Sequence record: NC_106514.1
Reading direction: 5' to 3' (one strand)
From: Escherichia phage vB_EcoS_ESCO40
Length of the DNA stretch: 64,000 nucleotides
Positions 103 to 31,508 of this stretch are shown here, piece by piece. A program made the translations under genes and the position numbers. The notes under the pieces were generated by a model. That model did not search any database and was not told the DNA's origin. It saw only the letters and a program-made list of their open reading frames with translations. How positions within the stretch are numbered: position 1 is the stretch's first letter; each line of letters opens with the position of its first letter.

Positions 103-131
103 ATTATACAGAATTTTGGAGCCGGAAGCAA
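103..131 (-). promoter_or_regulatory. sigma70-type early promoter (TTGCTT-17bp-TATAAT) with conserved downstream CATAAATTTGAGA box
   Basis: minus strand reads TTGCTT (126-131), 17-bp spacer, TATAAT (103-108), then ATATTCATAAATTTGAGAAAAC. Confidence 0.6.
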
Positions 132-132
132 A

Positions 133-834
133 TCAAATTTTCATTTTTTCGATCATAGCTGCAACACAATAGCTTTCAACTAAGGCATCAAATGCAGGAT
201 CATGCTTAACCGGATAGATCCCATAACGAATGGTGTCCATCTTCTCCATTTTAGCTATTGCCCAGCTAATACCTTCGGTCTCTAGAGCCTTATAACTGTA
301 TCCAGCTTGCATCCAGAGATTACGAAGAGATCGAACATTACCCAAATTCCAGAATTTCCACGGAACTACCTCTTCATTGGTTCCAGCATGGAAAGTGTTT
401 GCAGAGTAGATAGTCATATCAAACTCTGGGCCATTGCCATAATACAAAGCATTTTCGCCTAGAGCCAACTCCATAATATTTTGAGCCATAGAGAAGGCAG
501 CATAGTTAGAGCCAAGTTTATTAGTACAATGATGTTTACCATTTTGGAAGGCAATCAGTTTTGGATTACGCTCGTTCATAGCTTCCATAATGTGGATAGC
601 AGACGGGCTATTTTTAGCTTGATCCATCCAGAATGCTAGAGTAGATGCTGTAACTTTGGCACCAGAATTAAGCTGATCTTGCACATCCAAAGTAACAAAT
701 ACTAGATTAGGGTCTTTATCAATCCCATGCATAGCCACAAAAGCGAAAGAAGGCATTACGATATGAGTAGTACCACAATCCCCTGGAGTTCCTAGAGATT
801 CAATATCTAACATACCAAATGGTTTTACTTTCAT
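133..834 (-). CDS. putative DEDD-type 3'-5' exonuclease (DexA-like)
   Basis: 233-aa ORF; N-terminal FGMLDIESLGT resembles the Exo I D-x-E box; sits in the early nucleotide-metabolism block. Confidence 0.4.
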   Translation of the reverse strand: MKVKPFGMLDIESLGTPGDCGTTHIVMPSFAFVAMHGIDKDPNLVFVTLDVQDQLNSGAKVTASTLAFWMDQAKNSPSAIHIMEAMNERNPKLIAFQNGKHHCTNKLGSNYAAFSMAQNIMELALGENALYYGNGPEFDMTIYSANTFHAGTNEEVVPWKFWNLGNVRSLRNLWMQAGYSYKALETEGISWAIAKMEKMDTIRYGIYPVKHDPAFDALVESYCVAAMIEKMKI

Positions 835-862
835 AACTTATCCTTTATTGCGTAGAAAACTA

Positions 863-1099
863 TTAAAGAGCTGTCTCTTTAATAGACTCCCACTTCTTGG
901 GGTCTTTAAAACCAGGAAGCATATCTTCACTAACATCCCAGTTTTCTTCCATAGAAAAGTCTGGCCATTCATTCCAGCTATCTTCCAGTTCTTCGTAGCA
1001 GGTATCCATTACCTCATGACTAGAAAGTCGTGTATAATCTCTAGCGGACTTATGAGTGCTAGCACGGTTAAAATCATTCTTTGCTACAAAATTACGCAT
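863..1099 (-). CDS. hypothetical acidic small protein
   Basis: 78-aa ORF with GGAGAAAC-ATG ribosome site, co-directional with neighbours; the overlapping plus-strand ORF 848-1114 is judged spurious. Confidence 0.5.
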   Translation of the reverse strand: MRNFVAKNDFNRASTHKSARDYTRLSSHEVMDTCYEELEDSWNEWPDFSMEENWDVSEDMLPGFKDPKKWESIKETAL

Positions 1100-1931: not shown

Positions 1932-1970
1932 TATTTATTTTCCTTTTTGTTTATCAATTTATGAAGTATA

Positions 1971-1999
1971 TTATACGAGAATTTGAAGCGTTTAGCAAA
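1971..1999 (-). promoter_or_regulatory. sigma70-type early promoter (TTGCTA-17-TATAAT)
   Basis: minus strand TTGCTA (1994-1999), TATAAT (1971-1976), followed by ATACTTCATAAATTGATAAAC. Confidence 0.6.
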
Positions 2000-2014
2000 T
2001 GAATTTTTTAAAAA

Positions 2015-2293: not shown

Positions 2294-2319
2294 AAAGCCC
2301 CCTCACTTTCAATACGAAT

Positions 2320-2348
2320 ATTATACTAAATTAAAGGGCTTTAAGCAA
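2320..2348 (-). promoter_or_regulatory. sigma70-type early promoter (TTGCTT-17-TATAAT)
   Basis: minus strand TTGCTT (2343-2348), TATAAT (2320-2325). Confidence 0.55.
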
Positions 2349-2368
2349 GAAAATTTTTAATTTATTTA

Positions 2369-2845
2369 TCACATCTCAGCCATTTCAGCTTCAGTAATAA
2401 CTGTATTACATAGTGCATCTACAGCTTCATTACCACTAATTCCTGAGTGCCCTTTTACTTTAATAAAAGTAGGATTAGTATTGTGGAAGTTAATGTATTG
2501 CTGAGTTAATTTAAATGCTTCTTGCCAAAGTTCTAGATTAAGAGGGATTTCACCATCTGCTTTCTTCCAGCCTTTCTTTTGCCAAGAAAACATCCAACTT
2601 TCCATACCATTTTTGCAATAAGCAGAGTCAGTATATATAATAATTGGTCTATTATCTTTTTTAACGGACCAACGTAGAGCTTCTACAATAGCTGTGAGTT
2701 CCATCTCATTATTTGTAGTTTTAGGACTATAACCAGATTTAGAGCCTAAACGATCGTCGTTATCATCATAGACAATAAAACCCCAAGCACCCGGGCCAGG
2801 GTTGGACTTACAAGCACCATCTGTGTAAATGTGGAAAACCGACAT
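2369..2845 (-). CDS. rnh: ribonuclease H (RnhA-type)
   Basis: IYTDGACKSNPGPGAWG, ELTAIVEAL, IYTDSAY and KGHSGISGNEAVDALC match RNase H catalytic motifs; ATG at 2843-2845 preferred over the upstream TTG used in the ORF track. Confidence 0.85.
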   Translation of the reverse strand: MSVFHIYTDGACKSNPGPGAWGFIVYDDNDDRLGSKSGYSPKTTNNEMELTAIVEALRWSVKKDNRPIIIYTDSAYCKNGMESWMFSWQKKGWKKADGEIPLNLELWQEAFKLTQQYINFHNTNPTFIKVKGHSGISGNEAVDALCNTVITEAEMAEM

Positions 2846-3126
2846 TATACCTCCCAACTAATTTTAAGACCTATGTCTACAAAGGCGGCTTCTCGGTAGT
2901 ATTGTGAGAGATGATACCCCTTATCCGATAAGGTTTTTAGTACCGATTTAGCGGCTCCTGGCATTTCTCTAGGATTATATAGCCACCTAGCGTAAGGATT
3001 ATCTCGAATAATTACTTCTGTATTTCCAGACTTAGCAGCTTCTACAATCTTTTCTTCTATAAACTTTAGAAATGCGGGTACTTCTGTTAATCCTGCAAGT
3101 TCTTGGGCTTCTTTGGCTGAAATCAT
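2845..3126 (-). CDS. hypothetical protein
   Basis: 93-aa ORF, stop overlaps the RNase H start (TAATG coupling), own promoter at 3152-3180. Confidence 0.5.
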   Translation of the reverse strand: MISAKEAQELAGLTEVPAFLKFIEEKIVEAAKSGNTEVIIRDNPYARWLYNPREMPGAAKSVLKTLSDKGYHLSQYYREAAFVDIGLKISWEV

Positions 3127-3151
3127 TGTATACCTCCAATTTATAAAATAT

Positions 3152-3180
3152 ATTATATTTAAATTTCACTAAATAAGCAA
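3152..3180 (-). promoter_or_regulatory. sigma70-type early promoter (TTGCTT-17-TATAAT)
   Basis: minus strand TTGCTT (3175-3180), TATAAT (3152-3157), then ATATTTTATAAATTGGAGG. Confidence 0.6.
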
Positions 3181-3196
3181 ATGAAATTTAAATATA

Positions 3197-3214
3197 ATAG
3201 CCCCGAAGGGCTAT
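3197..3214 (-). terminator. stem-loop ATAGCCC-UUCG-GGGCUAU, terminator after thyA
   Basis: 7-bp stem with UUCG-type loop on minus strand followed by A/U-rich tract, directly downstream of thyA stop. Confidence 0.5.
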
Positions 3215-5734: not shown

Positions 5735-5765
5735 TGATTTTCCTCTTTCTCACTATTTCAGGAAT

Positions 5766-5794
5766 ATTATAGCAAATCAGGTAGCGATTAGCAA
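5766..5794 (-). promoter_or_regulatory. sigma70-type early promoter (TTGCTA-17-TATAAT) for nrdB
   Basis: minus strand TTGCTA (5789-5794), TATAAT (5766-5771). Confidence 0.6.
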
Positions 5795-5812
5795 GTAAAA
5801 TTTCAAAGAAAA

Positions 5813-5832
5813 AGGAGACCCGAAGATCTCCT
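5813..5832 (-). terminator. stem-loop plus U-tract after nrdA
   Basis: AGGAGA / TCTCCT stem; minus-strand transcript ends ...CUCCUUUUUCUUUG. Confidence 0.5.
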
Positions 5833-9267: not shown

Positions 9268-9343
9268 AAATAACACTCCTATAGTGTACTTCGCTTCTAA
9301 CAGAGGATCAACAAAGAGATCTTGTTTATCAACTTACAAATAT

Positions 9344-9372
9344 ATTATAACAAGGTTTACAGCAAAAAGCAA
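9344..9372 (-). promoter_or_regulatory. sigma70-type early promoter (TTGCTT-17-TATAAT) for phoH operon
   Basis: minus strand TTGCTT (9367-9372), TATAAT (9344-9349). Confidence 0.55.
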
Positions 9373-9544
9373 GTATAATTTTAAATAAACCTATGATATT
9401 GCTTTTAAGTAAAAAATTTACTTGCTTATAAAGGTAGAAATATGATACTAGATAATCATTTATTTATATGTAAAGATATTATGCTGTATAGCATCGATAA
9501 AAATTGATAAAAATCAAAAGTCAAATAGTATTAGAAAAATGTAG

Positions 9545-9573
9545 TTGACTTATGGGGTGGAATTGTGTATAAT
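9545..9573 (+). promoter_or_regulatory. sigma70-type promoter (TTGACT-17-TATAAT)
   Basis: TTGACT 9545-9550, TATAAT 9568-9573, followed by AAGGAG site and the 9595 start. Confidence 0.6.
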
Positions 9574-9594
9574 ATATGAATTAAGGAGAATTTA

Positions 9595-10266
9595 ATGGTA
9601 AGAAAGAAAATAACTACAGAAGATGTGAACTTAACACTTGCTCCCAGAGGAATAATTATGCTAAGCACGTATATATCAGCTAAATCCAATGCTATATTTA
9701 AGTGCTCTAATGGACATAGTTGGGAGGCTAGAGTAGATAATGTAAAAGGTGGGAGAGGTTGCCCTTATTGTGCTAGTCGTACTTTAGATCTTAAAGAGGT
9801 AAGTGAATCCTTAGCTGCTCGTGGAATAAAGATGGAAGGTAAATACATCAATTCTAAGAGTAAAATTATGTTCAGCTGTGAGAATAATCATAGGTGGGAG
9901 TCTACACTTGATAGTGTTAGAAACCATAGTTCTGGTTGTCCTATATGTTTATTAGAGAAGGATAATTATCCTACTAGCGTATATATTTTAATAAGTAATG
10001 TGGGAACCAAAATAGGAGTGTCTAGCAGAACTAAAGATAGACTCAGAGATATTAAAACTTCTTCTAACATACATGATTTAAAAATATTTAAGGAATATAG
10101 CTTTTCAGATAGATCAAAAGCTATGCGTATTGAAAGAGAGGCCCATTTACAGTTTAAGGAATATAATTGTCAGTACAAAGATTTTGATGGTGCTACAGAA
10201 TTTTTTAATATTGAGCCAGAAGTAGTAGCAAGGTTTATTGAGGAAATAATTAATGACAGAGAATGA
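9595..10266 (+). CDS. T5orf172 / GIY-YIG-like domain protein with two N-terminal zinc-ribbon repeats; putative homing-type endonuclease
   Basis: two repeats C-x-N-x-H-x-W-E...G-C-P-x-C (KCSNGHSWEARVDNVKGGRGCPYC, SCENNHRWESTLDSVRNHSSGCPIC); C-terminal VYILISNVGTKIGVSS...R..R pattern. Confidence 0.55.
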   Translation: MVRKKITTEDVNLTLAPRGIIMLSTYISAKSNAIFKCSNGHSWEARVDNVKGGRGCPYCASRTLDLKEVSESLAARGIKMEGKYINSKSKIMFSCENNHRWESTLDSVRNHSSGCPICLLEKDNYPTSVYILISNVGTKIGVSSRTKDRLRDIKTSSNIHDLKIFKEYSFSDRSKAMRIEREAHLQFKEYNCQYKDFDGATEFFNIEPEVVARFIEEIINDRE

Positions 10267-12079
10267 ATTAATTGAGAATTGCAAAGGTCTGCTCACTCTA
10301 ACTGCGGATAAGGACTTACAGCATAATAATGCTAATAAGCCTAGTGAGATGTTCCATACTCAAAGAGACTTATTAGCTGGGGAAATTAACAAGTATTTAG
10401 TATCGCAAGAATTACCTAAACACCTGTTAGACGCACATAATCTAGGTAAAATACACATTCATGACATGGACTACAGAGCACAAGGGTACACCAACTGTTG
10501 CTTAGTAGATCTAGGCGGTATGCTGAAAAATGGCACTAAAATTGGTAACGCAAATATTGAAACCCCTAAATCCATAACTACTGCATGCGCGATTACTGCT
10601 CAGATTATTGCTCAAGTATCGGGTGCTCAGTATGGTGGCACCTCTATTGATCGTATCGATGAGGTTTTAGCCCCCTATGTCAGAAAGTCTTATGATAAAC
10701 ACCTGGGTCGTGGGCTACGTTGGCTCAAGGATGAAAGAAAAGCTGCTGTGTATGCTACTGAGCTTACTGAAAAAGAGTGTTATGATGCATTCCAAGCCCT
10801 AGAGTATGAAACTAATTCATTATTTAACTCTAATGGGCAGACCCCTTTTGTTACGCTTGGCTTTGGATTAGGTCAAGAGTGGGAGGAAAGGATGATTCAG
10901 AAAGCCATCCTCCAAAATCGTATTAAAGGTTTAGGTGCTGCTGAGTCAACCCCTATCTTCCCTAAACTAGTATTCTCAGTTAAAGAAGGGTTAAATAAAA
11001 ATCCAGGTGATCCTAACTATGATATAAAACAGCTAGCACTTGAGTGTTCTGCTACTCGTATGTATCCAGACTATTTAAGTTACGAGAGAGTTGTAGCTGT
11101 TACTGGTGATTTTAAAGCCCCTATGGGTTGTCGTAGTTTTTTATCTGCTATCCCCTCTGGAGAAATTGCAGGGCGTAATAATTTAGGTGTTGTGTCTATC
11201 AATCTACCTATGGTTGCTGCTGAGGCAGATGGAGTTTTTGAAGATTTCTGGGATATTCTAGACAAATATGTGGATGAGGCTTTTGAAGCGCATGACTTCT
11301 TCTTAAACAGACTGAAGAAAGTTAAGGCTAAACAAGCCCCTATTCTTTATATGCACGGTGGTTTTGGTGTACGTTTAGAAGGGGAAGAATATGTATGGCC
11401 TATTTTTGAGGGTAGATCCTCTGTATCTCTTGGGTATATTGGGGTCTATGAGATGTGCCAAATAATGTTTAGTTTACCACAGACTCATAGGGACTGTATT
11501 GAATTTACAGAGGAAGTTCTCACTCACTTAAAAAATCGTTGCGAAGTTAAAGCTAATGAGACTAATCTTGGGTTTAGCTTGTATGCTACTCCTAGTGAGT
11601 CTCTGTGTAATCGCTTTAATAAATTACTGGAGCGTAGATTCCCAGAGTATTCTTGGTTAACAGACAAAGGCTATCTTACTAATAGTCACCATTTGGACGT
11701 AAGAGAGAAGGTAGCCCCAGATACTAAATTTGAGTACGAAGCTCATTTTACCAAAATAGCTAATGGGGGTAATATATCGTTTGTGGAATTACCACAAATG
11801 AAAAAATTCCATAAAGCTCTTGAATACGTAGTAGATAAGGGACTAGAGTGTAGCCATTATATCGGTGTTAATATACCGATTGACGAGTGTTTCAACTGCG
11901 GATATATGGGTGAATCTATTGCCTCTGAGCGTGGGTTTGTATGTCCAAGTTGTGGGTCTGAAGAAATAGAGGTTACACGTAGGGTTTGCGGGTACCTGGG
12001 ATCCCCGGGCAGTAGGCCTTTCAATTCTGGGAAACAAAAAGAAGTGCTTGGTAGAGTAAAACACTTAAATCTTAAGTAA
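10253..12079 (+). CDS. nrdD: anaerobic ribonucleoside-triphosphate reductase (class III)
   Basis: aligns by eye with E. coli NrdD including the C-terminal zinc site (CFNCG...CPSCG) and glycyl-radical motif RVCGYLGS; no N-terminal ATP cone. Confidence 0.9.
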   Translation: MTENELIENCKGLLTLTADKDLQHNNANKPSEMFHTQRDLLAGEINKYLVSQELPKHLLDAHNLGKIHIHDMDYRAQGYTNCCLVDLGGMLKNGTKIGNANIETPKSITTACAITAQIIAQVSGAQYGGTSIDRIDEVLAPYVRKSYDKHLGRGLRWLKDERKAAVYATELTEKECYDAFQALEYETNSLFNSNGQTPFVTLGFGLGQEWEERMIQKAILQNRIKGLGAAESTPIFPKLVFSVKEGLNKNPGDPNYDIKQLALECSATRMYPDYLSYERVVAVTGDFKAPMGCRSFLSAIPSGEIAGRNNLGVVSINLPMVAAEADGVFEDFWDILDKYVDEAFEAHDFFLNRLKKVKAKQAPILYMHGGFGVRLEGEEYVWPIFEGRSSVSLGYIGVYEMCQIMFSLPQTHRDCIEFTEEVLTHLKNRCEVKANETNLGFSLYATPSESLCNRFNKLLERRFPEYSWLTDKGYLTNSHHLDVREKVAPDTKFEYEAHFTKIANGGNISFVELPQMKKFHKALEYVVDKGLECSHYIGVNIPIDECFNCGYMGESIASERGFVCPSCGSEEIEVTRRVCGYLGSPGSRPFNSGKQKEVLGRVKHLNLK

Positions 12080-12086
12080 GCTAATC

Positions 12087-12119
12087 AGCCAGGTTGCTAG
12101 TCGACCTGGCTTTTATTTT
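12087..12119 (+). terminator. rho-independent terminator after nrdD
   Basis: AGCCAGGT / ACCTGGCT 8-bp stem followed by TTTTATTTTA. Confidence 0.65.
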
Positions 12120-12121
12120 AT

Positions 12122-12150
12122 TTGCTTTCAGCCAAAAATTTATATATAAT
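12122..12150 (+). promoter_or_regulatory. sigma70-type early promoter (TTGCTT-17-TATAAT) with CATAAATTTGAGAGG leader
   Basis: TTGCTT 12122-12127, TATAAT 12145-12150, then AGATTTATAAATTTGAGAGGAG. Confidence 0.65.
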
Positions 12151-12178
12151 AGATTTATAAATTTGAGAGGAGAAGACT

Positions 12179-15302: not shown

Positions 15303-15344
15303 CTGTACTCAAAGACACTGATAGCACCATCCGGAAAATTTTAC

Positions 15345-15373
15345 TTGCATGATACTCAAAATCTTGATATAAT
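15345..15373 (+). promoter_or_regulatory. sigma70-type promoter (TTGCAT-17-TATAAT) heading a ~500-nt untranslated leader
   Basis: TTGCAT 15345-15350, TATAAT 15368-15373, then ATTTATATTGAATTGAGAGAC and a 10-bp hairpin (15394-15419). Confidence 0.55.
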
Positions 15374-15873
15374 ATTTATATTGAATTGAGAGACATTAGT
15401 AAAAATTGGTTTTACTAATTTTTCTTGTTTACAATCCGCGATACGGAACAGTTAGGCTGCCCCATTAAGGGTTGTTTTAACTGTTACGTGTTAGTTTTTA
15501 AACAAATAGTTAATAGAATACTTAGCGATCTGCGTCCCATAGGAACCCTGGTAAGGCCTCGAAGCAACCTAGTATGAGGTGGTTGTGAAGTGAGATGGGA
15601 GGAGTGAAAAACTACCGAGACGTGATTCTGTAAGTTATATTGCATCTAGTATGAGCTAGTATATGAAGCATTAGGTGAGCAAATCTGGCTTAGCGGCCAT
15701 CCTCAAGGATTTGTGCGGTATAATGAGGCAGCAGCGCAGCGTGAAAGTGGAAGTTGCCACCCCACTTCAGTATTTGCGATTAATTTGTTGAGAAATTGAC
15801 AGTAACAGTTGTTCTATTCTTTCTGAATAGTCCTAAAGAAAACTTATTTCATTTCCAACACAGGAGTATTGTT

Positions 15874-18663: not shown

Positions 18664-18888
18664 AAAATGGGAAACAAGGAAGTTTCCAGTAAAAGAACGT
18701 AAGGTTCCTGTTTATGATACTTCGGAAAAGCTATGTAGGGTGGTACCACACAGATTAGCTGGTATCCCTAACATATCCGAGTGGTTACTTAAACAACGGA
18801 GGACTAGCGTATCCCTCCGCATAGGGTTTGAGTTAGATAAAGTATATGCTGAACTTTCTTCTTTGCTCAAAGAATCATAAAAAATTAT

Positions 18889-18917
18889 TTGCTTTCAGGA
18901 AAAATTTTCTGTATAAT
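18889..18917 (+). promoter_or_regulatory. sigma70-type early promoter; sequence matches (from memory) the classical T5 PN25 promoter
   Basis: AAATTATTTGCTTTCAGGAAAAATTTTCTGTATAATAGATTCATAAATTTGAGAGAGGAG; TTGCTT 18889-18894, TATAAT 18912-18917. Confidence 0.75.
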
Positions 18918-18948
18918 AGATTCATAAATTTGAGAGAGGAGTTTAAAT

Positions 18949-19897: not shown

Positions 19898-19914
19898 CTA
19901 CTTAAAAATTTCAG

Positions 19915-19943
19915 TTGCTTAATCCTATAATTCTTGATATAAT
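19915..19943 (+). promoter_or_regulatory. sigma70-type early promoter (TTGCTT-17-TATAAT)
   Basis: TTGCTT 19915-19920, TATAAT 19938-19943. Confidence 0.6.
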
Positions 19944-20000
19944 ATTCTCATAGTTTGAAAGAACTATTCTGTTTAATTCTTAATTAAGGAAATATAAAAT

Positions 20001-20448: not shown

Positions 20449-20745
20449 ATGACCAAAGCTGAAATTATCGCACAGTGTGAAAAATTTGGTGAGTTTTATC
20501 TTCATTACGAGAAACTTCGTCAGAAAGGAACCACGTACCTTCAGGGTACAATGGAATTTGATCCGGCCCAAGATAAATATCTGGCTGAGCGTATTAAACG
20601 TGAACGTATTCGTAAAGCGAAAGATGATGAAATCCTTGTCTTCTCTCGTACTAATGATAGCTTCCGTTTTATTCCTGTCGAGAAAGTTCGTCGTGTGACT
20701 AGCCTCCAATCAGAGTTAGATCGTGCTTCTCCAGTAGGCCGATAA
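20449..20745 (+). CDS. hypothetical protein
   Basis: 98-aa ORF with AAAGGAA site, followed by terminator. Confidence 0.5.
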   Translation: MTKAEIIAQCEKFGEFYLHYEKLRQKGTTYLQGTMEFDPAQDKYLAERIKRERIRKAKDDEILVFSRTNDSFRFIPVEKVRRVTSLQSELDRASPVGR

Positions 20746-20755
20746 GAAAACAATT

Positions 20756-20782
20756 AGCCCCTATATGGGGCTTTTTGTGTAT
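20756..20782 (+). terminator. rho-independent terminator
   Basis: AGCCCC-TATAT-GGGGCT stem-loop then TTTTTGTGTATTT. Confidence 0.65.
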
Positions 20783-20795
20783 TTGGGATATGTAA

Positions 20796-21104
20796 ATGAG
20801 CGAACAGGTAAATCAAAACTATGAAGGACACGTTGATGACCAGTCCATCATACTTTGGGAGAAGGAGGGGGAACAAGTAAGATTAACAGTATCTGAATTT
20901 CGTGGGAATCTATACATGGGTATTCGTTACTGGCTTCTTGATATTAATGATGAATGGTTTCCAACGAAATCTGGCTTCTCTTTTCCTTACACCCTAGAAA
21001 CAACATCACAGCTTTTCTATGCGTTTACACAGATTCTTAGTGAATCTGAGGTTTTACATGAAGTACAGAAACGAGCTGAAGAACTCAAAGCCAAGAATGC
21101 CTAG
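20796..21104 (+). CDS. hypothetical protein
   Basis: 102-aa ORF; stop lies inside the following terminator stem. Confidence 0.5.
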   Translation: MSEQVNQNYEGHVDDQSIILWEKEGEQVRLTVSEFRGNLYMGIRYWLLDINDEWFPTKSGFSFPYTLETTSQLFYAFTQILSESEVLHEVQKRAEELKAKNA

Positions 21105-21122
21105 TTCTTGGCTTTTTCTTTA
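21089..21122 (+). terminator. rho-independent terminator
   Basis: AGCCAAGAA / TTCTTGGCT 9-bp stem then TTTTTCTTTAT. Confidence 0.7.
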
Positions 21123-21131
21123 TAAATGTAT

Positions 21132-21160
21132 TTGCTTTCAACTCAGTTTTGTTATATAAT
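21132..21160 (+). promoter_or_regulatory. sigma70-type early promoter (TTGCTT-17-TATAAT)
   Basis: TTGCTT 21132-21137, TATAAT 21155-21160, then ATTTATATAAATTAATGAGAGG. Confidence 0.65.
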
Positions 21161-21174
21161 ATTTATATAAATTA

Positions 21175-21390
21175 ATGAGAGGATCAATCATGGCAATGAC
21201 AGTAACACTTCCCAAGATTCAAGCAAAACTTAATCTACTTTCCACAGCACGTATTAATTATCAAGATAGCATAGGCACAGTAAATCAAAAAGCGTACAAA
21301 GATGCGTTTCTGAAAGAATCTGCTGATTTGATGGATATGGTTACACAATATAATAAAGAACTCAAGATGGAAATCGCCGATGATGAATAA
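21175..21390 (+). CDS. hypothetical small protein
   Basis: 71-aa ORF with GAGAGGA site; overlaps the ligase start. Confidence 0.5.
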   Translation: MRGSIMAMTVTLPKIQAKLNLLSTARINYQDSIGTVNQKAYKDAFLKESADLMDMVTQYNKELKMEIADDE

Positions 21391-22354
21391 TGTAAAAGGC
21401 TTTATTAGGCGTTGTCAAGAAGCATATTATCAAGGCATGTCTTTAATCTCTGATGAGGAGTATGATTGCCTGGTAAAACGCTTCCCGTTAGAAGAAGAGA
21501 TCGGGCCTAAAGGTGATATTCCACATCTGTATCGTATGTATTCTTTACAGAAAGTTTATTATAATCGTGGAGATAAACCCCCATTTAACCCCTTAGGTCA
21601 GGTAGAAACTGATAAGTTAGATGGTTGTGCAATTTCTCTGTTATATATTAACGGCGAATTTGTCCAAGCATTAACCCGTGGTAATGGTATTCTAGGGAAT
21701 GATGTCACAAGCAACGTAAGATTGCTGAACATTCCTAAAAAGATTTCCCAAAAAGTACCTACTCAAATCACTGGTGAAGTTCTAATTACAAAAGAAGTAG
21801 AAAATAAACGTAACTTTGCCTCTGGTGCTATTAACCTCAAAGATAGTGATGATTTCGTACAACGCATTGGAGAAGGCGGTTTAATCTTTGTTGCTTACGG
21901 TATCCAATGTTCTGCTGAATCTGTAGGTATTACAGAAGCATACTTAAAAGATATGCTTTGGCTAGAGAATGAGAACTTCTTAACAGTTGTTAATGTGCGT
22001 TCCTTCTTTAAATGGATTCCGACGGACGGTAAAGTTGTTCGTATTAATGACAACAACAAATTCTTCCGTGAAGGCTGGACTAATAAATTCCCTCGTGGAG
22101 CATTCGCTATTAAAGAGGATGAAGAAGGCGAAATTACAACTCTTACTAAAGTTGAATGGCAGGTAGGGGCTTCTGGTAAAGTAACTCCAGTTGGTTATTT
22201 CGAACCGGTAATTATTGATGATGCTACAATTGTTAAGGCGACTCTTAATAACGTTGATTATATTAACTCTCTCGATCTAGAGATCGGTTGCCAGATTCGA
22301 GTGATTCGTGCTGGTGGTGTAATCCCGTGCATAGTAGAGCGAGTATACGATTAA
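21380..22354 (+). CDS. ligA: NAD-dependent DNA ligase, N-terminal (adenylation/OB) half
   Basis: KLDG adenylation-lysine motif (ETDKLDGCAISLLY), TRGNGILGNDVT; ORF ends before the Zn-finger/HhH/BRCT part. Confidence 0.75.
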   Translation: MMNNVKGFIRRCQEAYYQGMSLISDEEYDCLVKRFPLEEEIGPKGDIPHLYRMYSLQKVYYNRGDKPPFNPLGQVETDKLDGCAISLLYINGEFVQALTRGNGILGNDVTSNVRLLNIPKKISQKVPTQITGEVLITKEVENKRNFASGAINLKDSDDFVQRIGEGGLIFVAYGIQCSAESVGITEAYLKDMLWLENENFLTVVNVRSFFKWIPTDGKVVRINDNNKFFREGWTNKFPRGAFAIKEDEEGEITTLTKVEWQVGASGKVTPVGYFEPVIIDDATIVKATLNNVDYINSLDLEIGCQIRVIRAGGVIPCIVERVYD

Positions 22355-22404
22355 TACATAACCCTTTGCTACCCATCTACCATATCGGAATTATAAAGTG
22401 GTTA

Positions 22405-22433
22405 TTGACATTTTCGCCGCTTAGGTATATACT
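22405..22433 (+). promoter_or_regulatory. sigma70-type promoter (TTGACA-17-TATACT) inside the ligase spacer
   Basis: TTGACA 22405-22410, TATACT 22428-22433; followed by an 8-codon mini-ORF (ATG GCG AGG GTA AGC AAA GTT AGT TAA). Confidence 0.5.
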
Positions 22434-22497
22434 ATTATCATTCAGTTGAGGGATAGAAAGTTATGGCGAGGGTAAGCAAAGTTAGTTAAAATTGTAG

Positions 22498-22526
22498 TTG
22501 CTAAATGCTTAAATACTTGCTATAAT
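22498..22526 (+). promoter_or_regulatory. sigma70-type early promoter (TTGCTA-17-TATAAT)
   Basis: TTGCTA 22498-22503, TATAAT 22521-22526, then ATTTATATAAATTGATAAGGAAG. Confidence 0.65.
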
Positions 22527-22556
22527 ATTTATATAAATTGATAAGGAAGAAATTTG

Positions 22557-23336
22557 ATGAAAATCGAAATTCCAACACAATGTCCCTCTTGTGGTTCTAA
22601 GCTAGATCTTGTCAACGGACAATTATTCTGTCGTAATAAGTCCAACTGTCCAGCGCAATCAAGTAAGTTAATTGAGAACTTCTGTACAAAAATGAAGTTA
22701 AAGGGCTTTGGCCCGAAAACTATTGAGAAGCTGGAGCTGACGAAGATTTCAGAACTATTTTACCTAACCGAAGAAGATTTGGTTAGAGCCGTGGGTAGCA
22801 AGGTTGCCGCTAAGTTAATTAGCGAATTAAATACTAAAGTTCGCGGAGACATTGACTTTGGTTCAGTTCTCGGTTCTTTAGGAATCCCTCTAATTGGAGA
22901 GGTTGCAGCAAAGAAATTGTCCCAAAATTGCACCAGTTTTCAAGATGTGAGAGCTGATGGCAAAGCTGGAGAAAATTATAAAGCCTGGCTAAATTCCCCA
23001 CAAGGCAAGGATGTTATCGAATTACCGTGGAAATTCACAACTGGTATTAAAGGTGCTAAAGCTGGGGTCATCATTACTGATGGTCTAGTAGCCCAGCCAA
23101 ATGGAATCACGGTGTGTATTACCGGGTCTTTGCAAGATTTTGCAAATAGAACGGATGCAACAAATTATTTAGAAGGTCTAGGGTATACTGTTAAAAAATC
23201 AGTTACCAAAGACGTTAAATACCTAATCTGTGAGGATGAATCGAAGCGTTCTTCCTCATCTTATAAGAAAGCCGAAACGAATGGGATAGAAATCCTGTCG
23301 ATTAAAGAACTATTGGAGAAAAATAATAATGTCTAA
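22557..23336 (+). CDS. ligA: NAD-dependent DNA ligase, C-terminal (zinc-finger/HhH/BRCT) half
   Basis: four-Cys zinc finger CPSCGSKLDLVNGQLFCRNKSNCPAQ and HhH-like KLKGFGPKTIEKL; ATG 22557 with AAGGAAG site. Confidence 0.7.
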   Translation: MKIEIPTQCPSCGSKLDLVNGQLFCRNKSNCPAQSSKLIENFCTKMKLKGFGPKTIEKLELTKISELFYLTEEDLVRAVGSKVAAKLISELNTKVRGDIDFGSVLGSLGIPLIGEVAAKKLSQNCTSFQDVRADGKAGENYKAWLNSPQGKDVIELPWKFTTGIKGAKAGVIITDGLVAQPNGITVCITGSLQDFANRTDATNYLEGLGYTVKKSVTKDVKYLICEDESKRSSSSYKKAETNGIEILSIKELLEKNNNV

Positions 23337-24096
23337 ACTGAACTGGAACGTAGAAGGTGTAACCGAGTCTCTGAAAGCAAAAGCCACTGCTCTGGGTGTT
23401 GATGTAATCTCTCAAGAACAAGTAGCTACTATCGCTGCTGAACTGGCCGCTGAAACTGGCAAAGACGTTACCGCTCGCTCTGTTGGCTCTAAGCTGCGTA
23501 AAGAAGGTTTCGAAGTACAGAAAGCTAACGAAGTACAGAAATCTCCGTGGACTCCTGAGCAGGAAGCTGAACTGGTTGATTTCCTGAACGCTCATGCTGG
23601 TCAGTATACTTATGCTGAAATCGCTGCTGCTGTAGCTGGTGGTCAATTTGGTGCTAAGCAGGTACAGGGTAAGATCCTGAGTCTGGAAATGACCGCTTCT
23701 GTTAAACCAACTGAAAAAGCTGCTGCTGTTCGTTCCTTCACTCCGGATGAAGAAACTGACTTTGTTAATCAGGTTGTTGCTGGTGCTACTATTGAAGCTA
23801 TCGCTGCTCACTTCGGTCGTAATATCAAGCAGATCCGTGGTAAAGCTCTGAGTCTGCTGCGTGAAGGTCGTATCGCTGCTATGCCGGTACAGGAAACTTC
23901 AAGTGCTAAAACCCGTGAAGATCTGTTAGAAGGTCTGGATCTGGCTAATATGACCGTTGCTGAGATCGCTGAGAAAACTGGTAAGTCTGAGCGCGGTGTT
24001 AAATCTATGCTGTCTCGTCGTGGTCTGGTTGCTAAGGACTATGATGGTGCCGCTAAGCGTGCTAAACTGGATGCAAAAGCTGCGGCTGCTGAATAA
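23329..24096 (+). CDS. abundant-type protein with four degenerate ~30-aa HTH-like repeats (candidate DNA-binding protein)
   Basis: repeats TIAAELAAETGKDVTARSVGSKLRKEG / TYAEIAAAVAGG..QGKILSLE / TIEAIAAHFGRNIKQIRGKALSLLREG / TVAEIAEKTGKSERGVKSMLSRRG; strongly biased E. coli-optimal codons. Confidence 0.55.
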   Translation: MSKLNWNVEGVTESLKAKATALGVDVISQEQVATIAAELAAETGKDVTARSVGSKLRKEGFEVQKANEVQKSPWTPEQEAELVDFLNAHAGQYTYAEIAAAVAGGQFGAKQVQGKILSLEMTASVKPTEKAAAVRSFTPDEETDFVNQVVAGATIEAIAAHFGRNIKQIRGKALSLLREGRIAAMPVQETSSAKTREDLLEGLDLANMTVAEIAEKTGKSERGVKSMLSRRGLVAKDYDGAAKRAKLDAKAAAAE

Positions 24097-24178: not shown

Positions 24179-25651
24179 ATGACCTTGTTTAACGTGCAAG
24201 CTGTAGTGTTGAAGATGCTTCTAGCTTCAGAACAGAAGCAAATAGCATTGGAAACATTCTCAAAACTGCATAAAGATCATTTTAATGACGCTTTCTCCTC
24301 AATTTACCAAGCCGTCCAGAATTATTATAAAAAATATAACACAATGCCGTCCATTGACGCACTGATGCTTGAGGCTAATAGGAACGCCCGCCTTTCTCAA
24401 GCTCTAGTCGTTTTAGCTAACACTCAAATTCCAGAAGTTAGCATGGAACAGGCACTTGAAGTCTTAGAGGCCGAGTATACACAGGATTTATTCCTGAAGC
24501 TTCTAGAAACAGACGTGCTTCAAGATTTAACAATGCTGGATCAGGGAGAAATTCTTAACCGAGTTGCCTCCCTTCACTTAAAATTAGAAGAGAAAGTAAC
24601 GAATACTGGAAAAGTATTCAACGCAGATAACATGCGTATTTTCCAGAGAGAAGAAGATACCAAACTGAACTTAATCGCTCTTGGTATTTGTAATGAGTTC
24701 GATGCTCAAATTGGTTTAGCTCGCACAGAAACGTTACTGCTTGGTGGTTGGCGTGGTACTGGTAAATCCATTATCTGTTCAAACATACAGGTTCAGCAAT
24801 ATTTGAATGGAGATATTGCTCCATACTTCTCAATTGAGATGAAAGAACATGAAGTATTTAGACGTAATCTAGCCATGTTAGCTGGTGTATCAGCACTAGC
24901 AATGCGTAATAATACTCTAGAAGGTGCAGCTCTGTTGAGATTAGCCAGAACTAGAGCTAGGATGTTTAATGGTGGTGAGGAGCTTTTCGATAACTTCGTT
25001 AAACAGTACACAATGGCTAAGATGAGTGATTTCTACGATATGGAAAGTAAGCTAATAGAAGGATATGAGCTACATACTCCTATGATTATTGTTTATGATC
25101 CTGAGCTGTCTATTACAACAGTTGACGTAGAATTAAATAAATTAGTTGCTAGATATGGGGATAAAGTTACAGTAGCTTTACTGGACTATATTAACCAAAC
25201 CCGACTTCCAGACTCTAAAACCATTGATATGTATGACTGGAAAGAACAGATGGTTGTTAGCTCGTCTTTCAAATCTATCTGCCAGAAACATAACGTGGCT
25301 GGTGTAGCCCCTTACCAGATTGATCAAGATGGTAGAACACGTATGTCAAAGGGGATTCTTGATTCCGCAGACATGGCTGCTAATCTTAATGCTGCTAAAG
25401 CTGATAATGGTCAAGGTGCTATTATGTTTGACTTCGTTAAGACCCGTTCTTCTGATAGCGTGAAGTTTATGCCTAAAATGAACTGGGAAACCCTGCGAAT
25501 GGATAACACTACCAACCTAGCAATGGAAGATATATCTCAAATGGAAGCTGAGTTCGTTATCCCTATTGAGAAGGATAAGCCAGCTCAATCTAAACGTGCT
25601 AAGAAAGACAAAGCTGAAAATTCAACAGGTGAACAGGCCAGCGATATATGA
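24179..25651 (+). CDS. putative replicative helicase (RecA-fold P-loop ATPase)
   Basis: Walker A LLGGWRGTGKSI, DnaB-like C-terminal organisation, followed directly by primase; ORF-track start 24128 lies inside the upstream terminator so ATG 24179 is preferred. Confidence 0.6.
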   Translation: MTLFNVQAVVLKMLLASEQKQIALETFSKLHKDHFNDAFSSIYQAVQNYYKKYNTMPSIDALMLEANRNARLSQALVVLANTQIPEVSMEQALEVLEAEYTQDLFLKLLETDVLQDLTMLDQGEILNRVASLHLKLEEKVTNTGKVFNADNMRIFQREEDTKLNLIALGICNEFDAQIGLARTETLLLGGWRGTGKSIICSNIQVQQYLNGDIAPYFSIEMKEHEVFRRNLAMLAGVSALAMRNNTLEGAALLRLARTRARMFNGGEELFDNFVKQYTMAKMSDFYDMESKLIEGYELHTPMIIVYDPELSITTVDVELNKLVARYGDKVTVALLDYINQTRLPDSKTIDMYDWKEQMVVSSSFKSICQKHNVAGVAPYQIDQDGRTRMSKGILDSADMAANLNAAKADNGQGAIMFDFVKTRSSDSVKFMPKMNWETLRMDNTTNLAMEDISQMEAEFVIPIEKDKPAQSKRAKKDKAENSTGEQASDI

Positions 25652-26538
25652 GTAGAATAACAGAACTACTTGATCTGAAAGGCATTGAATATAAAGACAC
25701 AGGTGGGGACATCCTCATCTGTTGTCTCAATCCAGATCATGACGATAAACACCCAAGTTTGCGTATTGACCCTGAAACAGGTATTATGCACTGCTTGAGT
25801 TGTGGCTTCGGTAAAGGTATACCGAGCATTTACCATTATTTTAATGAGACTCAGTACCGACAGTCCCCAAGGCTATCGCAAGTACGTAAAAAGATTTCAG
25901 AGATTAGGAATGGATCAACGAATCTTGCAATTCCTGAATCTGCTTACCTTTTCGAAGGTGATTTCCGGGGTATAAGTTCTAAGACCTTGAAGAAATATTT
26001 TGCTTTCCAACACCAAGAGAGCTGGGAAGGCAGAATTGTATTCCCAATCACAGATGCTGTTGGACGCAATATCCTATTTTTGGGTCGTTCTATAAACAGT
26101 TCTGCCCCTCCTAAATACTTAGTAAAACCAAAACAAGTTTCACCGCCAATTTTTCCTGTACGATATAATACTCCAGTTCTTATTCTAGTTGAAGGCATCT
26201 TTGATATGCTGAACCTAGAGGATAATGGTATAGACTATGCTTCTTGCTGCTTTGGTACACATCAGTTTACTTCGGATAACATTGCAGATAAGTTCAGTCC
26301 TTATATTATTGCTGGGGTAAAAGTTGTTGTTATCTTACTAGATAATGATGCTTCCGGTAATAAAGCTGCACAAGCACTGGCCAAGCTAATTCGTACAAAA
26401 ACGCGTTTAACACCTGTAGTTGCTAACTTTCTTCTGCCCGAAGGTAAAGACCCCGGTGATTTAAATAAAGAAGAGATTGATATGTTAGCAAAACGTATTG
26501 AAATTTTAGTTGCTGAATCACTTAAAGATTTGGTATAA
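25648..26538 (+). CDS. DNA primase (zinc-binding domain plus Toprim)
   Basis: CHC2 zinc finger CCLNPDHDDKHPSLRIDPETGIMHCLSCG; Toprim acidic motifs ILVEGIFDMLNLED and VILLDNDASG. Confidence 0.85.
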   Translation: MSRITELLDLKGIEYKDTGGDILICCLNPDHDDKHPSLRIDPETGIMHCLSCGFGKGIPSIYHYFNETQYRQSPRLSQVRKKISEIRNGSTNLAIPESAYLFEGDFRGISSKTLKKYFAFQHQESWEGRIVFPITDAVGRNILFLGRSINSSAPPKYLVKPKQVSPPIFPVRYNTPVLILVEGIFDMLNLEDNGIDYASCCFGTHQFTSDNIADKFSPYIIAGVKVVVILLDNDASGNKAAQALAKLIRTKTRLTPVVANFLLPEGKDPGDLNKEEIDMLAKRIEILVAESLKDLV

Positions 26539-26564
26539 TAGTCCTAAATAACTGAGGAGCTACT

Positions 26565-26894
26565 ATGGAATATGTATATATTTATGAAGATGTTCCAGTA
26601 TACGATAGTATAACACACGAAGAAGTTAAACTAGAGCTATTTACAGTACTAGAGTCCCTTAATAAACGAAAGGATTTCCATTTATTTGGTGATCCTAAAT
26701 TACCTGCATCTTATATTTTCTTTAAAGTAAAAGATACAGGTCAAGAGGTGTATCTAACTTATGATTGGGCTGTTGTAGAAAATACTGAGCAATCTATGAA
26801 AGTGTTAGGTGCTTTTCTGCGTATAGATGAAGAATTTCGGTCACTAGAAAAGCAGCGCAATGAAATGCGTAAATTACTACATACCTATAAATAG
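26565..26894 (+). CDS. hypothetical protein
   Basis: 109-aa ORF with GAGGAG site. Confidence 0.5.
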   Translation: MEYVYIYEDVPVYDSITHEEVKLELFTVLESLNKRKDFHLFGDPKLPASYIFFKVKDTGQEVYLTYDWAVVENTEQSMKVLGAFLRIDEEFRSLEKQRNEMRKLLHTYK

Positions 26895-26897
26895 TAT

Positions 26898-26927
26898 TTG
26901 CTATTATCCCAATATTTTTGATACAAT
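26898..26927 (+). promoter_or_regulatory. sigma70-type promoter (TTGCTA-18-TACAAT) for the DNA polymerase gene
   Basis: TTGCTA 26898-26903, TACAAT 26922-26927; 5' leader forms a 9-bp hairpin (26931-26939 / 26967-26975) abutting the AAGAGGAG site. Confidence 0.55.
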
Positions 26928-26988
26928 ATATTGGTAAGTTAGAGAAGAAACACTGAAGTTATACTTACTTACCAAGAGGAGATTAAAT

Positions 26989-29556: not shown

Positions 29557-30046
29557 TTTCAAATTGCCCGTCTATGCGTTACGGGCGTTTGTATCAATTG
29601 AGCAAGAAGGTGATTATTCCGTAATTACAACAAGATATAATAAATATGTGCTAGATAACAGGAAGTTGCCTGGCACGTTTTCTCAACGTAGGCTTATTCT
29701 ATTTGAGAAACGGAAAGAATTACCATACAAGCTTTATCCTATTAGGGGTAGAATATCAATGTTGTCTCAATTAGTTGGGTCAAAGCGTGACCAATTTATA
29801 GATTCTGATGGAAATCTTATTAATTGGAAGAAAACTACGTTCTATGATGTTGTCACCTCTAAAGTTTTGCATTCAGCTAGAATTTATAATGGAAAATACC
29901 AATGCTATGTGGCTAAAGTCCCTTATCCATTTGTACTATCCTATGTTCCAGCTTATATAAGCTATATTCTGGTAAATAATAGCCCTGTTATTTATCAAGC
30001 CCATCAAGAGGAGCCTGAAATTCCTAGACTTAGAATAAAATTATGA
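29549..30046 (+). CDS. hypothetical protein (AT-rich, atypical codon usage)
   Basis: 165-aa ORF exactly filling the gap between polymerase and helicase, GTG start, no internal Met until residue 71; may be shorter or non-coding. Confidence 0.3.
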   Translation: MLNFKLPVYALRAFVSIEQEGDYSVITTRYNKYVLDNRKLPGTFSQRRLILFEKRKELPYKLYPIRGRISMLSQLVGSKRDQFIDSDGNLINWKKTTFYDVVTSKVLHSARIYNGKYQCYVAKVPYPFVLSYVPAYISYILVNNSPVIYQAHQEEPEIPRLRIKL

Positions 30047-31395
30047 AGGTTGTTATATCTAATAAAGCCTATTTCAAGCCCGATGATGAACTTTGGGATT
30101 ATTGTAGTAAGCAAACCACTTATCACATAGAGACAATGACTAGTAAATACCCTATTATGTATAAGAATAGTGGTGTTGTTGCCAAAGAGATTAAGTGGAT
30201 TCCTATTACGCGTCTGGACTTACTAGATGCTAAAGGAGTAAAATACGAATTAGTCGATAAACGCACATTAGCTCCGGTAGATATACCAAAACCTAAGTTC
30301 AAACTGCGTGAAGAAGATCAGCTTCCAATATACGAAGAATGCGATGATACCTGTATTATTAATGGTAAGCCTGGATTTGGTAAAACTATCCTAGCCCTTG
30401 CACTTGCGTATAAATTTGGCCAGAAAACTTTGGTAATCTGTACGAATACATCCATTCGTGAAATGTGGGCGGCAGAAGTTCGTAAATGGTTTGGGTTTGA
30501 ACCAGGCATCATAGGTTCTGGGAAATACAATATTGATCCACCAATTGTAGTTAGTAATATTCAAACAGTGAATAAACATGCGAATAATCTTTCTAAAGTA
30601 TTCGGTACTGTTATAGTTGATGAAGTTCACCATTGTGTAGCTACAACTTTCACTAACTTCCTAGAAATATCATGTGCTCGCTATAAAATTGGACTATCCG
30701 GTACACTAAAACGAAAAGATGGTTTGCAAGTTATGTTCAAAGATTTCTTTGGATATAAAATCTTTAGTCCTCCAGTTAATAATACTGTTGCTCCTACAAT
30801 CCACAGGTACTCCGTACCAGTTGAATTGTCTGGAAACCAAAACGTACCGTGGGCATTACGTGCTAACGATGTGTATAATCATCCTGAATATCGAGAGACC
30901 ATTATAAACCTAGCACATTTATATGTGAATATGGGACATAAAGTACTCATTGTAAGTGATAGAACAGAGTTAATCCAAACAGTACTAGAAGCACTATCTC
31001 AGAGAGGAGTCACAACCTATGAGATTATTGGCGCAACCCACTTAGATGACCGATTAAAAATTCAGGAAGATATAGCAAAAGGTGGGTCTTGTGTACTTGC
31101 AGCAGCTCAAAGTATCTTCTCTGAAGGTATTTCCCTTAACGAGCTGTCTTGTTTAATAATGGGAAGCCTCATTAATAATGAATCTCTCATCGAACAGCTT
31201 GCAGGCCGTGTTCAACGTATTGTCGATGGTAAACTCGACCCTATTGTTGTAGATCTAATTATGAAAGGTGGCACTGGGTTAAGGCAGGCTTCTGGACGTA
31301 TGGCAGTATATCGTAACAACGGGTGGAAAACTATTACTATGACTCCGGAGAAAGCAGTTCAATTAGCTAAAATTGCATTTGGCAACAGCTCATAA
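30043..31395 (+). CDS. SF2 DNA helicase (DEVH-box)
   Basis: Walker A NGKPGFGKTILALALA, Walker B VIVDEVHHC, helicase C-terminal domain. Confidence 0.85.
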   Translation: MKVVISNKAYFKPDDELWDYCSKQTTYHIETMTSKYPIMYKNSGVVAKEIKWIPITRLDLLDAKGVKYELVDKRTLAPVDIPKPKFKLREEDQLPIYEECDDTCIINGKPGFGKTILALALAYKFGQKTLVICTNTSIREMWAAEVRKWFGFEPGIIGSGKYNIDPPIVVSNIQTVNKHANNLSKVFGTVIVDEVHHCVATTFTNFLEISCARYKIGLSGTLKRKDGLQVMFKDFFGYKIFSPPVNNTVAPTIHRYSVPVELSGNQNVPWALRANDVYNHPEYRETIINLAHLYVNMGHKVLIVSDRTELIQTVLEALSQRGVTTYEIIGATHLDDRLKIQEDIAKGGSCVLAAAQSIFSEGISLNELSCLIMGSLINNESLIEQLAGRVQRIVDGKLDPIVVDLIMKGGTGLRQASGRMAVYRNNGWKTITMTPEKAVQLAKIAFGNSS

Positions 31396-31478
31396 ATGAT
31401 GTATAATATATACATAAATTTGAGAGAGAAAGTTTCGGATTGATAAGAAAGTCCGAAGCAGAAAAATAAAAATTTTAG

Positions 31479-31508
31479 TTGCTAAATTCTCTCGAAATCT
31501 AGTATAAT
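31479..31508 (+). promoter_or_regulatory. sigma70-type early promoter (TTGCTA-18-TATAAT)
   Basis: TTGCTA 31479-31484, TATAAT 31503-31508, then ATATACATAAATTCGAGGAG; a related TATAAT / CATAAATTTGAGAGAG element sits at 31402-31430. Confidence 0.55.

Follow-up and report, generated by a model that had tools for sequence, protein, structure and literature searches.

Early promoters of the T5-like Escherichia phage vB_EcoS_ESCO40 share a conserved discriminator and initial transcribed sequence

The early region and its promoters

Escherichia phage vB_EcoS_ESCO40 (sequence record NC_106514.1) carries a family of promoters that share, in addition to their -35 and -10 hexamers, a conserved downstream box. 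This family was analyzed in a stretch of 64,000 nucleotides, called the window in the following, for which an initial annotation had listed 14 copies. When a 4-kb piece (18000-22000) was compared with phage records, 447 matches were obtained, in which T5-like phages are 96-97% identical; the best matches (~97%) are Salmonella phage oldekolle and Escherichia phage chee24 (Tequintavirus). The reference genome of phage T5 (NC_005859) is collinear with the window, whose position 1 corresponds to ~44,317 of T5. The part from 1 to 38 kb is the T5 early region, encoding nucleotide metabolism and replication, and the remainder is the late, structural region. Up to ~9.4 kb the early genes are encoded on the minus strand and beyond this point on the plus strand, and the GC skew agrees with this layout. 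All promoter sites lie within 1-31.5 kb, where they diverge from ~9.4 kb and stand upstream of early genes in the same orientation (Table 1).

Searching for the strict pattern TTGCTW-N16-19-TATAAT revealed 12 sites, where shuffled sequences give 0.30 expected and 2 at maximum. A relaxed pattern adds 15345 (TTGCAT), 26898 (TACAAT) and 26510 (TTGCTG), and two further sites, P31A and P-K28b, were recovered through comparison with T5. The family then counts 16 typical copies and the atypical P-K28b. All 14 copies listed before are real and their coordinates are right to one base at most (1971 becomes 1970). The combination of TTGCTT or TTGCTA with TATAAT, which had been assigned to all of them, is strictly present in 12 of the 14, but 15345 and 26898 are slightly degenerate. 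The spacer is indeed 17 bp and occasionally 18 bp, the latter only at 26510, 26898 and 31479. Three sites were absent from the earlier list: P31A (31379-31407), P-K28b (22405-22433) and a second Ppol-type copy (26510-26539).

From the 17 sites a two-block weight matrix was built. In a scan of the 64 kb it sets 16 sites apart from all other positions of the window, as these score 40-59 bits and lie without exception within 1-31.5 kb, whereas the next best position reaches 20.7 bits and shuffled sequence never rises above -2.7. A generic scan of the window with the TTGACA/TATAAT consensus gave 34 sites vs. 43.6 in shuffles, and thus no enrichment. Most members of the family escape such a scan, as TTGCTw obtains a low score against TTGACA.

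Each of the 17 sites aligns to an annotated 75-nt promoter of T5. Identities are mostly 95-100%; 3152, 5766, 26539 and 26927 match only a part of the 75-mer. The orthology to P-H207, P-N25, P-N26, P-K28a/b, Ppol and P31A/B bears out that these are early promoters of a T5-type phage. The copy at 18889 had been recognized as PN25, and window 18870-18943 is in fact 97.3% (73/75) identical to the P-N25 75-mer of T5. The one indel and the one substitution are both located upstream of the -10 hexamer, and the sequence from -12 to +20 is identical.

Table 1. Promoter sites of the family and promoter-associated junctions between window and T5. Promoters are named by their position in the window or by their T5 name; ORF, open reading frame.
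Feature	Coordinates	Strand	T5 counterpart and hexamers	Box, leader and surroundings
Promoter 103	83..142	-	T5 44393-44467 orthologue; -10 at 103-108, +1 at ~96	Strong box ATATTC ATAAATTTGAGAA; start codon ~+35
Promoter 1970	1950..2009	-	T5 P-H207 orthologue, 75/75 identical	Box displaced by 1 nt (CATAAATTGATAAA); start codon +33
Promoter 2320	2300..2359	-	T5 46337-46411 orthologue	Weak box ATTCGT ATTGAAAGTGAGG; start codon +21
Promoter 3152	3132..3191	-	T5 46937, partial match	Drives ORF 2845-3126, absent from T5; T5 homology stops at 3143/3144 inside the box
Promoter 5766	5746..5805	-	Upstream half matches T5 50061-50135	Upstream of nrdB; identity to T5 through TATAAT-AT, then break; T5 carries HNH endonuclease gene hegH there
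Promoter 9344	9324..9383	-	T5 53638-53712 orthologue	Upstream of phoH-like gene; box ATATTT GTAAGTTGATAAAC; leader ~70 nt
Promoter 12122	12111..12170	+	T5 55708-55782 orthologue	Strong box; directly 3' of terminator hairpin 12087-12111; T5 homology lost after +11
Promoter 15345	15334..15393	+	T5 58999-59073 orthologue; TTGCAT -35	Strong box; A/T-rich hairpin and T-run, then ~420 nt non-coding leader before origin-binding-protein gene
Promoter 18889	18878..18937	+	PN25 orthologue	Upstream of D2; -10, discriminator and +1 to +20 identical to T5 PN25 (TATAAT AGATTC ATAAATTTGAGAGAGGAGTT)
Promoter 19915	19904..19963	+	PN26 orthologue	Upstream of D3; leader 51 nt; box ATTCTC ATAGTTTGAAAG kept as far as Klebsiella phage IME260
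Promoter 21132	21121..21180	+	T5 65284-65358 orthologue	After terminator 21087-21115; T5 homology lost after +15; extra window ORF 21175-21390
Promoter 22405	22394..22453	+	P-K28b orthologue, 75/75 identical; TTGACA/TATACT	Atypical: no A-tract, weak box; in tandem, 93 nt upstream of P-K28a
Promoter 22498	22487..22546	+	P-K28a orthologue, 75/75 identical	Upstream of ligB; box ATTTAT ATAAATTGATAAGG
Promoter 26510	26500..26559	+	Ppol-type upstream copy, equals upstream half of T5 Ppol; TTGCTG, 18-bp spacer	Drives ORF 26565-26894 (109 aa, no Pfam match)
Promoter 26898	26888..26947	+	Downstream half equals that of T5 Ppol; TACAAT, 18-bp spacer	Upstream of DNA polymerase gene; leader 55 nt
P31A	31368..31427	+	75/75 identical to T5; TTGGCA -35	Exact CATAAATTTGAGAG; in tandem, 101 nt upstream of P31B
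P31B	31469..31528	+	75/75 identical to T5; 18-bp spacer	Box ATATAC ATAAATTCGAGGAG; leader ~100 nt
Junction 3152	3143/3144			At ~+2
Junction 5766	5760-5763		T5 has hegH	After TATAAT-AT
Junction 12150	12167/12168			After +11
Junction 21160	21181/21182			After +15
Junction 26539/26927	both ends of 376-nt cassette 26541-26916		T5 70967-71104	

Structure of the promoters and of the downstream box

Positions are numbered after Klimuk 2020 (PMC7472727), with +1 as the A seven bases 3' of TATAAT; in that work the stretch from -12 to +2 of N25 is given as TATAATAGATTCAT. The sites were aligned on the -10 hexamer and the information content of each column was compared with a sampling null (mean 0.13 bit, 99.9th percentile 0.71). 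The conserved stretch reaches from -46 to +14 and is composed of AAAATTT, TTGCTw, the spacer of 17-18 bp, TATAAT, ATaTty and then ATAAAtTtGAgag. Blocks above the null are AAAATTT at -45 to -39, TTGC at -35 to -32, an AAATTT tract at -21 to -15 and TATAAT. The -35 element TTGCTw is a non-consensus hexamer, and within the spacer a C is found at -25 in 14 of the 17 sites. The AAAATTT block (0.8-1.4 bits) resembles only the proximal subsite of an UP element, the columns from -59 to -47 being weak. We infer from this likeness that the A/T tract at -45 to -39 may act as the proximal half of such an element.

The columns from -6 to +14 carry 0.5-1.7 bits each. The discriminator is A/T-rich and follows the pattern A(T/G)ATTy, with A at -6 in 17 out of 17 sites and T at -5 in 14. 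Behind it, most columns of +1 to +14 (ATAAAtTtGAgag) are above the null with 0.5-1.1 bits each, and C is nearly absent from +2 to +14. The initial transcribed sequence ATAAATTTGAGAG contains hardly any C; A/T-rich as far as +8, it turns purine-rich at +9. The initial annotation had placed the box at about +5 to +25; its true extent is -6 to +14, i.e., it consists of the discriminator and the initial transcribed sequence, and in this numbering the 14-mer CATAAATTTGAGAG spans -1 to +13.

The signal of the box is visible solely with a position-specific matrix anchored on the -10 hexamer. As an exact word, the 14-mer CATAAATTTGAGAG occurs only at 18923 and 31413, and with one mismatch at 84 and 12156. 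If up to three mismatches are allowed, 16 matches are found in the window vs. 12.1 expected, which is no enrichment. When the box of each copy was scored by a matrix built from the others (leave-one-out), ~10 copies ranked among the best 3-37 of 127,948 20-mers. To call the family near-identical was therefore an overstatement, as the box is graded, with ~10 strong and 6-7 weak copies.

The box as a mark of early promoters

The box matrix derived from the window was applied to T5 promoters outside the region covered by the window, where each promoter was ranked among the 20-mers that follow TANNNT. Sixteen of the 20 T5 early promoters were found in the top 1%, and none of the three pre-early promoters. 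From the late or late-region promoters one out of four scored, P-G25, and this only marginally. The box is thus characteristic of the early class.

The same architecture is present at ~20 sites in Klebsiella phage IME260 (Sugarlandvirus), e.g., TATAAT AGATTC ATAAATTTGAGAGAGG, and also in Providencia phage PSTCR5 (Priunavirus). It recurs more weakly in Vibrio phage D153, whose polymerase shows no more than 50% identity. The gapless identity was determined for each segment in seven orthologous promoter pairs of the window and IME260. The -10 hexamer is 100% identical, followed by the discriminator (76%), the sequence from +1 to +14 (61%), the spacer (55%) and the sequence from +15 to +40 (37%). 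In the promoters of D2, D3 and ligB, 13 of the 14 bases in +1 to +14 are kept in IME260 despite diverged spacers. That each orthologous promoter keeps its own variant of the box argues for selection acting at each site.

Leaders, ribosome binding sites and RNA structure

In 8 of the 17 copies the start codon follows at +20 to +26, and the purines running from +9 to +16 make up the Shine-Dalgarno sequence. The start codons of the other nine are located at +33, +35, +52, +56, +71, ~+102, +115, ~+203 and >+400. The box might accordingly be nothing but ribosome-site context, that is an A/U-rich leader and GAGAGG kept as translation initiation region with no role in transcription. The eight copies in which the box makes up the entire leader fit this explanation, and in several copies most of the first 14 nt are unpaired. 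However, in the nine copies with start codons 33 to >400 nt from +1 the box is at least as strong, the mean leave-one-out score being 12.5 for long-leader vs. 9.7 for short-leader copies (means calculated by hand). In addition, the register of the box to the -10 hexamer is fixed in all copies and does not follow the start codon, although the leaders vary from 19 to >400 nt. Therefore, the box is not merely ribosome-site context. The unpaired probability of +1 to +14 also equals that of random 50-mers (0.62 vs. 0.60, p = 0.80), and the effect of the transcribed sequence of N25 was measured on RNA in vitro (PMC12464699). We regard an origin of the box in ribosome binding alone as improbable.

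Of the functions that had been suggested for the box, that of a translational enhancer can be retained for about half of the copies, those with a start codon at +20 to +26, but not for those with a start codon at +33 to >+400; and the reservation that the box might prove to be ribosome-site context only does not hold, as it is equally strong in long-leader copies. A role as mRNA-stability element is not supported since the predicted folds of +1 to +50 are heterogeneous among the copies and no common 5' structure is found. A stabilizing RNA hairpin was for the same reason rejected over all copies. An Rfam search of the whole window returned no match.

Promoter escape and its regulation

For the PN25 promoter the influence of the transcribed sequence has been studied directly. 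Its open complex is extremely stable, with a half-life of ~180 min, and the promoter is rate-limited at escape (PMC12464699). The 'downstream sequence region' at +3 to +20 has a ~10-fold effect on productive RNA (Kammerer 1986, as reported in PMC12464699 and PMC5961368). If +3 to +20 is changed to the so-called antiDSR (DSR, downstream sequence region), full-length RNA drops to about one tenth and abortive products go up (PMC12464699). From Kammerer 1986 and Hsu 2003/2006 the same paper reports that escape is fastest with the native A/T-rich and purine-rich N25 sequence (PMC12464699). That the initial transcribed sequence can shift the output of a promoter more than 10-fold was confirmed by Heyduk and Heyduk 2018 (PMC5961368).

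Taken together, the sites are with high probability host sigma-70-dependent promoters of the early class of a T5-like phage, in which the box, as discriminator plus initial transcribed sequence, would ease promoter escape. The initial annotation had proposed a shared function after polymerase binding, which was right in substance, as it is escape on which the +3 to +20 region of PN25 acts. On the early promoters escape would be the step that limits the output, given a tight and long-lived open complex, and a discriminator co-adapted with the initial transcribed sequence would allow fast clearance with rare abortive cycling. In the short-leader copies, about half of the family, the purine run at +9 to +16 would double as Shine-Dalgarno sequence of a leader of 19-25 nt. 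An early-specific discriminator could furthermore enable phage factors to treat early and late promoters differently, as a published hypothesis holds. We infer from the sequence likeness that the escape mechanism of PN25 may extend to the other copies.

Several points weigh against this interpretation. The escape effect was measured on PN25 alone, and the other 15-16 copies carry variants. In the leave-one-out scoring 6-7 copies are weak or shifted, of which 1970 and 3152 are displaced by one base and 2320, 5766 and 26539 are poor in any register; therefore, the box is not strictly required. A TG step is conserved at +8/+9, of the kind that slows escape near +6 (PMC5961368), and therefore the sequence is not simply optimized for escape. 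The evidence for start sites comes from the T5 orthologues, i.e., from the in vitro mapping of Gentz and Bujard 1985 (as reported in PMC7472727), and 11 of 19 in vitro T5 promoters gave primer-extension products in vivo (Klimuk 2020; PMC7472727). Finally, the whole P-N26 promoter and its leader are invariant within Tequintavirus (28 D3 loci from IMG/VR), and from such close relatives a constraint on the box cannot be told apart from one acting on the remaining leader.

The box, and especially its discriminator, could instead be the cis-target of an early shut-off encoded by the phage, exerted by a polymerase modified by gpT5.026 or by D5. The box divides early from pre-early promoters, less cleanly from late ones, and the discriminator ATATT is common to all known T5 early promoters (Klimuk 2020; PMC7472727). 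In the same study gpT5.026 weakened the polymerase contacts with -5 to +2 and the binding of the polymerase to the -12/+2 N25 strand ~8-fold, and early transcripts increased without gpT5.026. A homologue of D5 is encoded in the window (23329-24096). However, the effect of gpT5.026 on in vitro transcription is two-fold at most, and the early-to-late switch persists without gpT5.026 (PMC7472727). No protein is known to bind +1 to +14. Moreover, PN25 is very strong in uninfected Escherichia coli, and therefore the main effect of the box needs no phage factor. We consider it unlikely that shut-off is what the box is for. The regulator-binding site that had been suggested is conceivable for the discriminator part, whose early-specific ATATT is proposed by Klimuk 2020 to influence how gpT5.026 acts, but not for the rest of the box.

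A further explanation starts from TAAATT at +2 to +7, which as a -10-like element might re-capture sigma-70, in the manner of lambda PR', and make the polymerase pause around +16 to +18, creating a checkpoint. A TANNNT hexamer is present in 12 of the 17 sites, at +2 to +7 or, in the two copies that are shifted, at +3 to +8, and Heyduk 2018 (PMC5961368) discusses an escape-slowing element in +2 to +10 and cites the literature on sigma-70 pausing. However, PN25 has decades of in vitro dissection behind it, and the accounts considered here (e.g., PMC12464699) give abortive products of 2-10 nt and escape at +11, and none of them describes a pause at 16-18 nt. The hexamer is also a poor match to TATAAT (4/6). 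A pausing checkpoint therefore seems very unlikely, and eased escape is the reading that we prefer for the box.

Cassette junctions at the promoters

The alignment of the window with T5 contains 14 indels or replacements within 1-33.2 kb. At 5 of these 14 junctions the homology ends inside or at the edge of the -12 to +20 zone of a promoter (Table 1). The breakpoints of the 376-nt cassette fall at the -10 hexamers, and Ppol of T5 is an exact hybrid of the two promoters that flank the cassette in the window. Of 437 related phage genomes, 49 possess the cassette, BF23 being one of them. The promoter zones comprise ~1.6% of the sequence but, by a rough estimate, perhaps 15% of the intergenic DNA; therefore, the enrichment of junctions over an intergenic-only null is modest. 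The coincidence of breakpoints with box edges is consistent with recombination between promoter copies, although it is no proof of it.

These junctions bear on a historical explanation for the likeness of the promoters, according to which they spread and stay alike as short homologies for the gain, loss and exchange of cassettes. It is in line with the homology to T5 breaking in or at the edge of the box at 3152, 5766, 12150, 21160 and 26539/26927, with the hybrid nature of Ppol and the distribution of the cassette, and with two alleles of the gene upstream of P-N26 that meet at ~-47. On the other hand, individual variants of the box persist across genera while the spacers diverge, a sign of purifying selection at the individual sites; the box is specific to its class; and junctions at promoters may simply reflect selection for expressed insertions in intergenic DNA. 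We see history as a possible source of the likeness, though not as the favored one. With similar reserve it may be proposed that promoter and box double as short homology for swapping small cassettes, as a Demerecviridae counterpart of the promoter early stem-loop shuffling in T4. If true, such a role would explain why many dispersed copies stay alike. In a broad literature search nothing relevant was found on promoter-mediated recombination in T5-like phages.

Around P-N26, 29 T5-like genomes show the 3' end of the upstream gene (window 19861-19905) in two very different alleles, which converge at ~-47 of the promoter. The promoter and its leader are invariant over these 29 genomes.

Other differences from T5 are located at gene boundaries. 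T5 carries whole-gene insertions relative to window 18643-18650, 25648-25651 and 52586-52599, which are hegI and hegJ, both coding for HNH endonucleases, and an insert of 773 nt. Insertions on the side of the window are found at 1131-1394 and 32710-33229, with an extra ORF of 71 aa and an ORF of 176 aa (32703-33233), respectively. In the late region a hairpin at 61837-61935 on the minus strand is followed by TTTACA-17-TATACT ATATTC ATACAGTTGAGGAGAACACT ATG. This site has a downstream box of the early type, no A-tract and no TTGCTw; with 20.7 bits it is the best one outside the family, and it sits exactly where T5 carries the extra endonuclease gene T5.154.

Between the divergent early promoters, in the region 9400-10270, the ORF 9595-10266 encodes T5orf172/MUG113 and DUF4379 zinc-finger domains. 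It has its own TTGACT-17-TATAAT promoter (9545-9573) without the box of the family. T5 differs in this region and carries the promoter 53776(-) and the nrdD promoter.

Several promoters form modules with terminators. Hairpins were found at 12087-12111, 15276-15298 and 21087-21115 on the plus strand and at ~3192-3210 and ~5805-5820 on the minus strand, and the T-tail of the intrinsic terminator runs into the upstream A/T tract of several early promoters. In the region 15380-15880 a further hairpin, ATTAGTAAAA / TTTTACTAAT, with a T-run covers +14 to +40 of promoter 15345 and looks like a terminator or attenuator. Its fold has a z-score of -2.1, and at one position of the stem that differs from T5 (A to G) pairing would be preserved as G-U. 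Of the leader behind this promoter, the first ~155 nt and the last ~90 nt are conserved in T5, and the middle ~300 nt are almost unalignable except for the island GGCTTAGCGGCC.

Comparison with known systems

The 'T5 promoter' of commercial expression vectors is based on PN25. Since the 1980s the T5 early promoters, and PN25 in particular, have served as standard tools and as model systems, and the sites described here carry little weight as a discovery. Both the promoters and their consensus are already known: they are annotated in the T5 reference, the consensus was published in 2012 and the downstream region of PN25 has been studied since 1986. The present analysis fixes the anatomy of the box at -6 to +14 and shows that it is a signature of the early class, conserved over several genera of the family. 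It also draws attention to the many differences between related phages that begin exactly inside promoters, as a possible mechanism of genome mosaicism.

The pause element of lambda PR' and the window copies have in common that the non-template strand contains a -10-like hexamer among the first 10 bases to be transcribed, but the likeness is at the sequence level only. To our knowledge, there is no Q-like factor for T5 early promoters. A second parallel is provided by the 'promoter early stem-loop' elements of T4-type phages, mobile regulatory cassettes reportedly described by Arbiol, Comeau and Krisch in 2010. They have in common with the window that early promoters are repeated, often stand beside a terminator hairpin and border variable small ORFs; however, they belong to another phage family and have another promoter sequence. 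In the window the link to recombination is based on one pairwise comparison and one presence/absence survey.

The closest counterpart is T5 itself (NC_005859; collection of the Bujard laboratory), in which the promoters have the same positions relative to the genes and the same -35, spacer, -10 and downstream region. Where T5 has its single Ppol, an extra ORF lies between two promoters in the window. Several of the downstream genes differ, and the window lacks equivalents of the T5 promoters at 53776 and 53884. For the T5-like phage AKFV33 a consensus was given by Niu et al. 2012 (PMC3326045), comprising TTGCTw, a spacer of 17-18 bp and TATAATA together with A/T-rich stretches at -43 (AAAAATT) and +1 (TAAATT). 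The window family has this very motif, but the +1 block was described in that paper by its A/T-richness only, and neither the purine run spanning +9 to +14 nor the specificity for the early class was noted. The downstream sequence region of PN25, associated with Kammerer 1986 and the Hsu laboratory, finally agrees with the box in position and composition, as it is A/T-rich and then purine-rich within +1 to +20, and the PN25 copy of the window matches it base for base.

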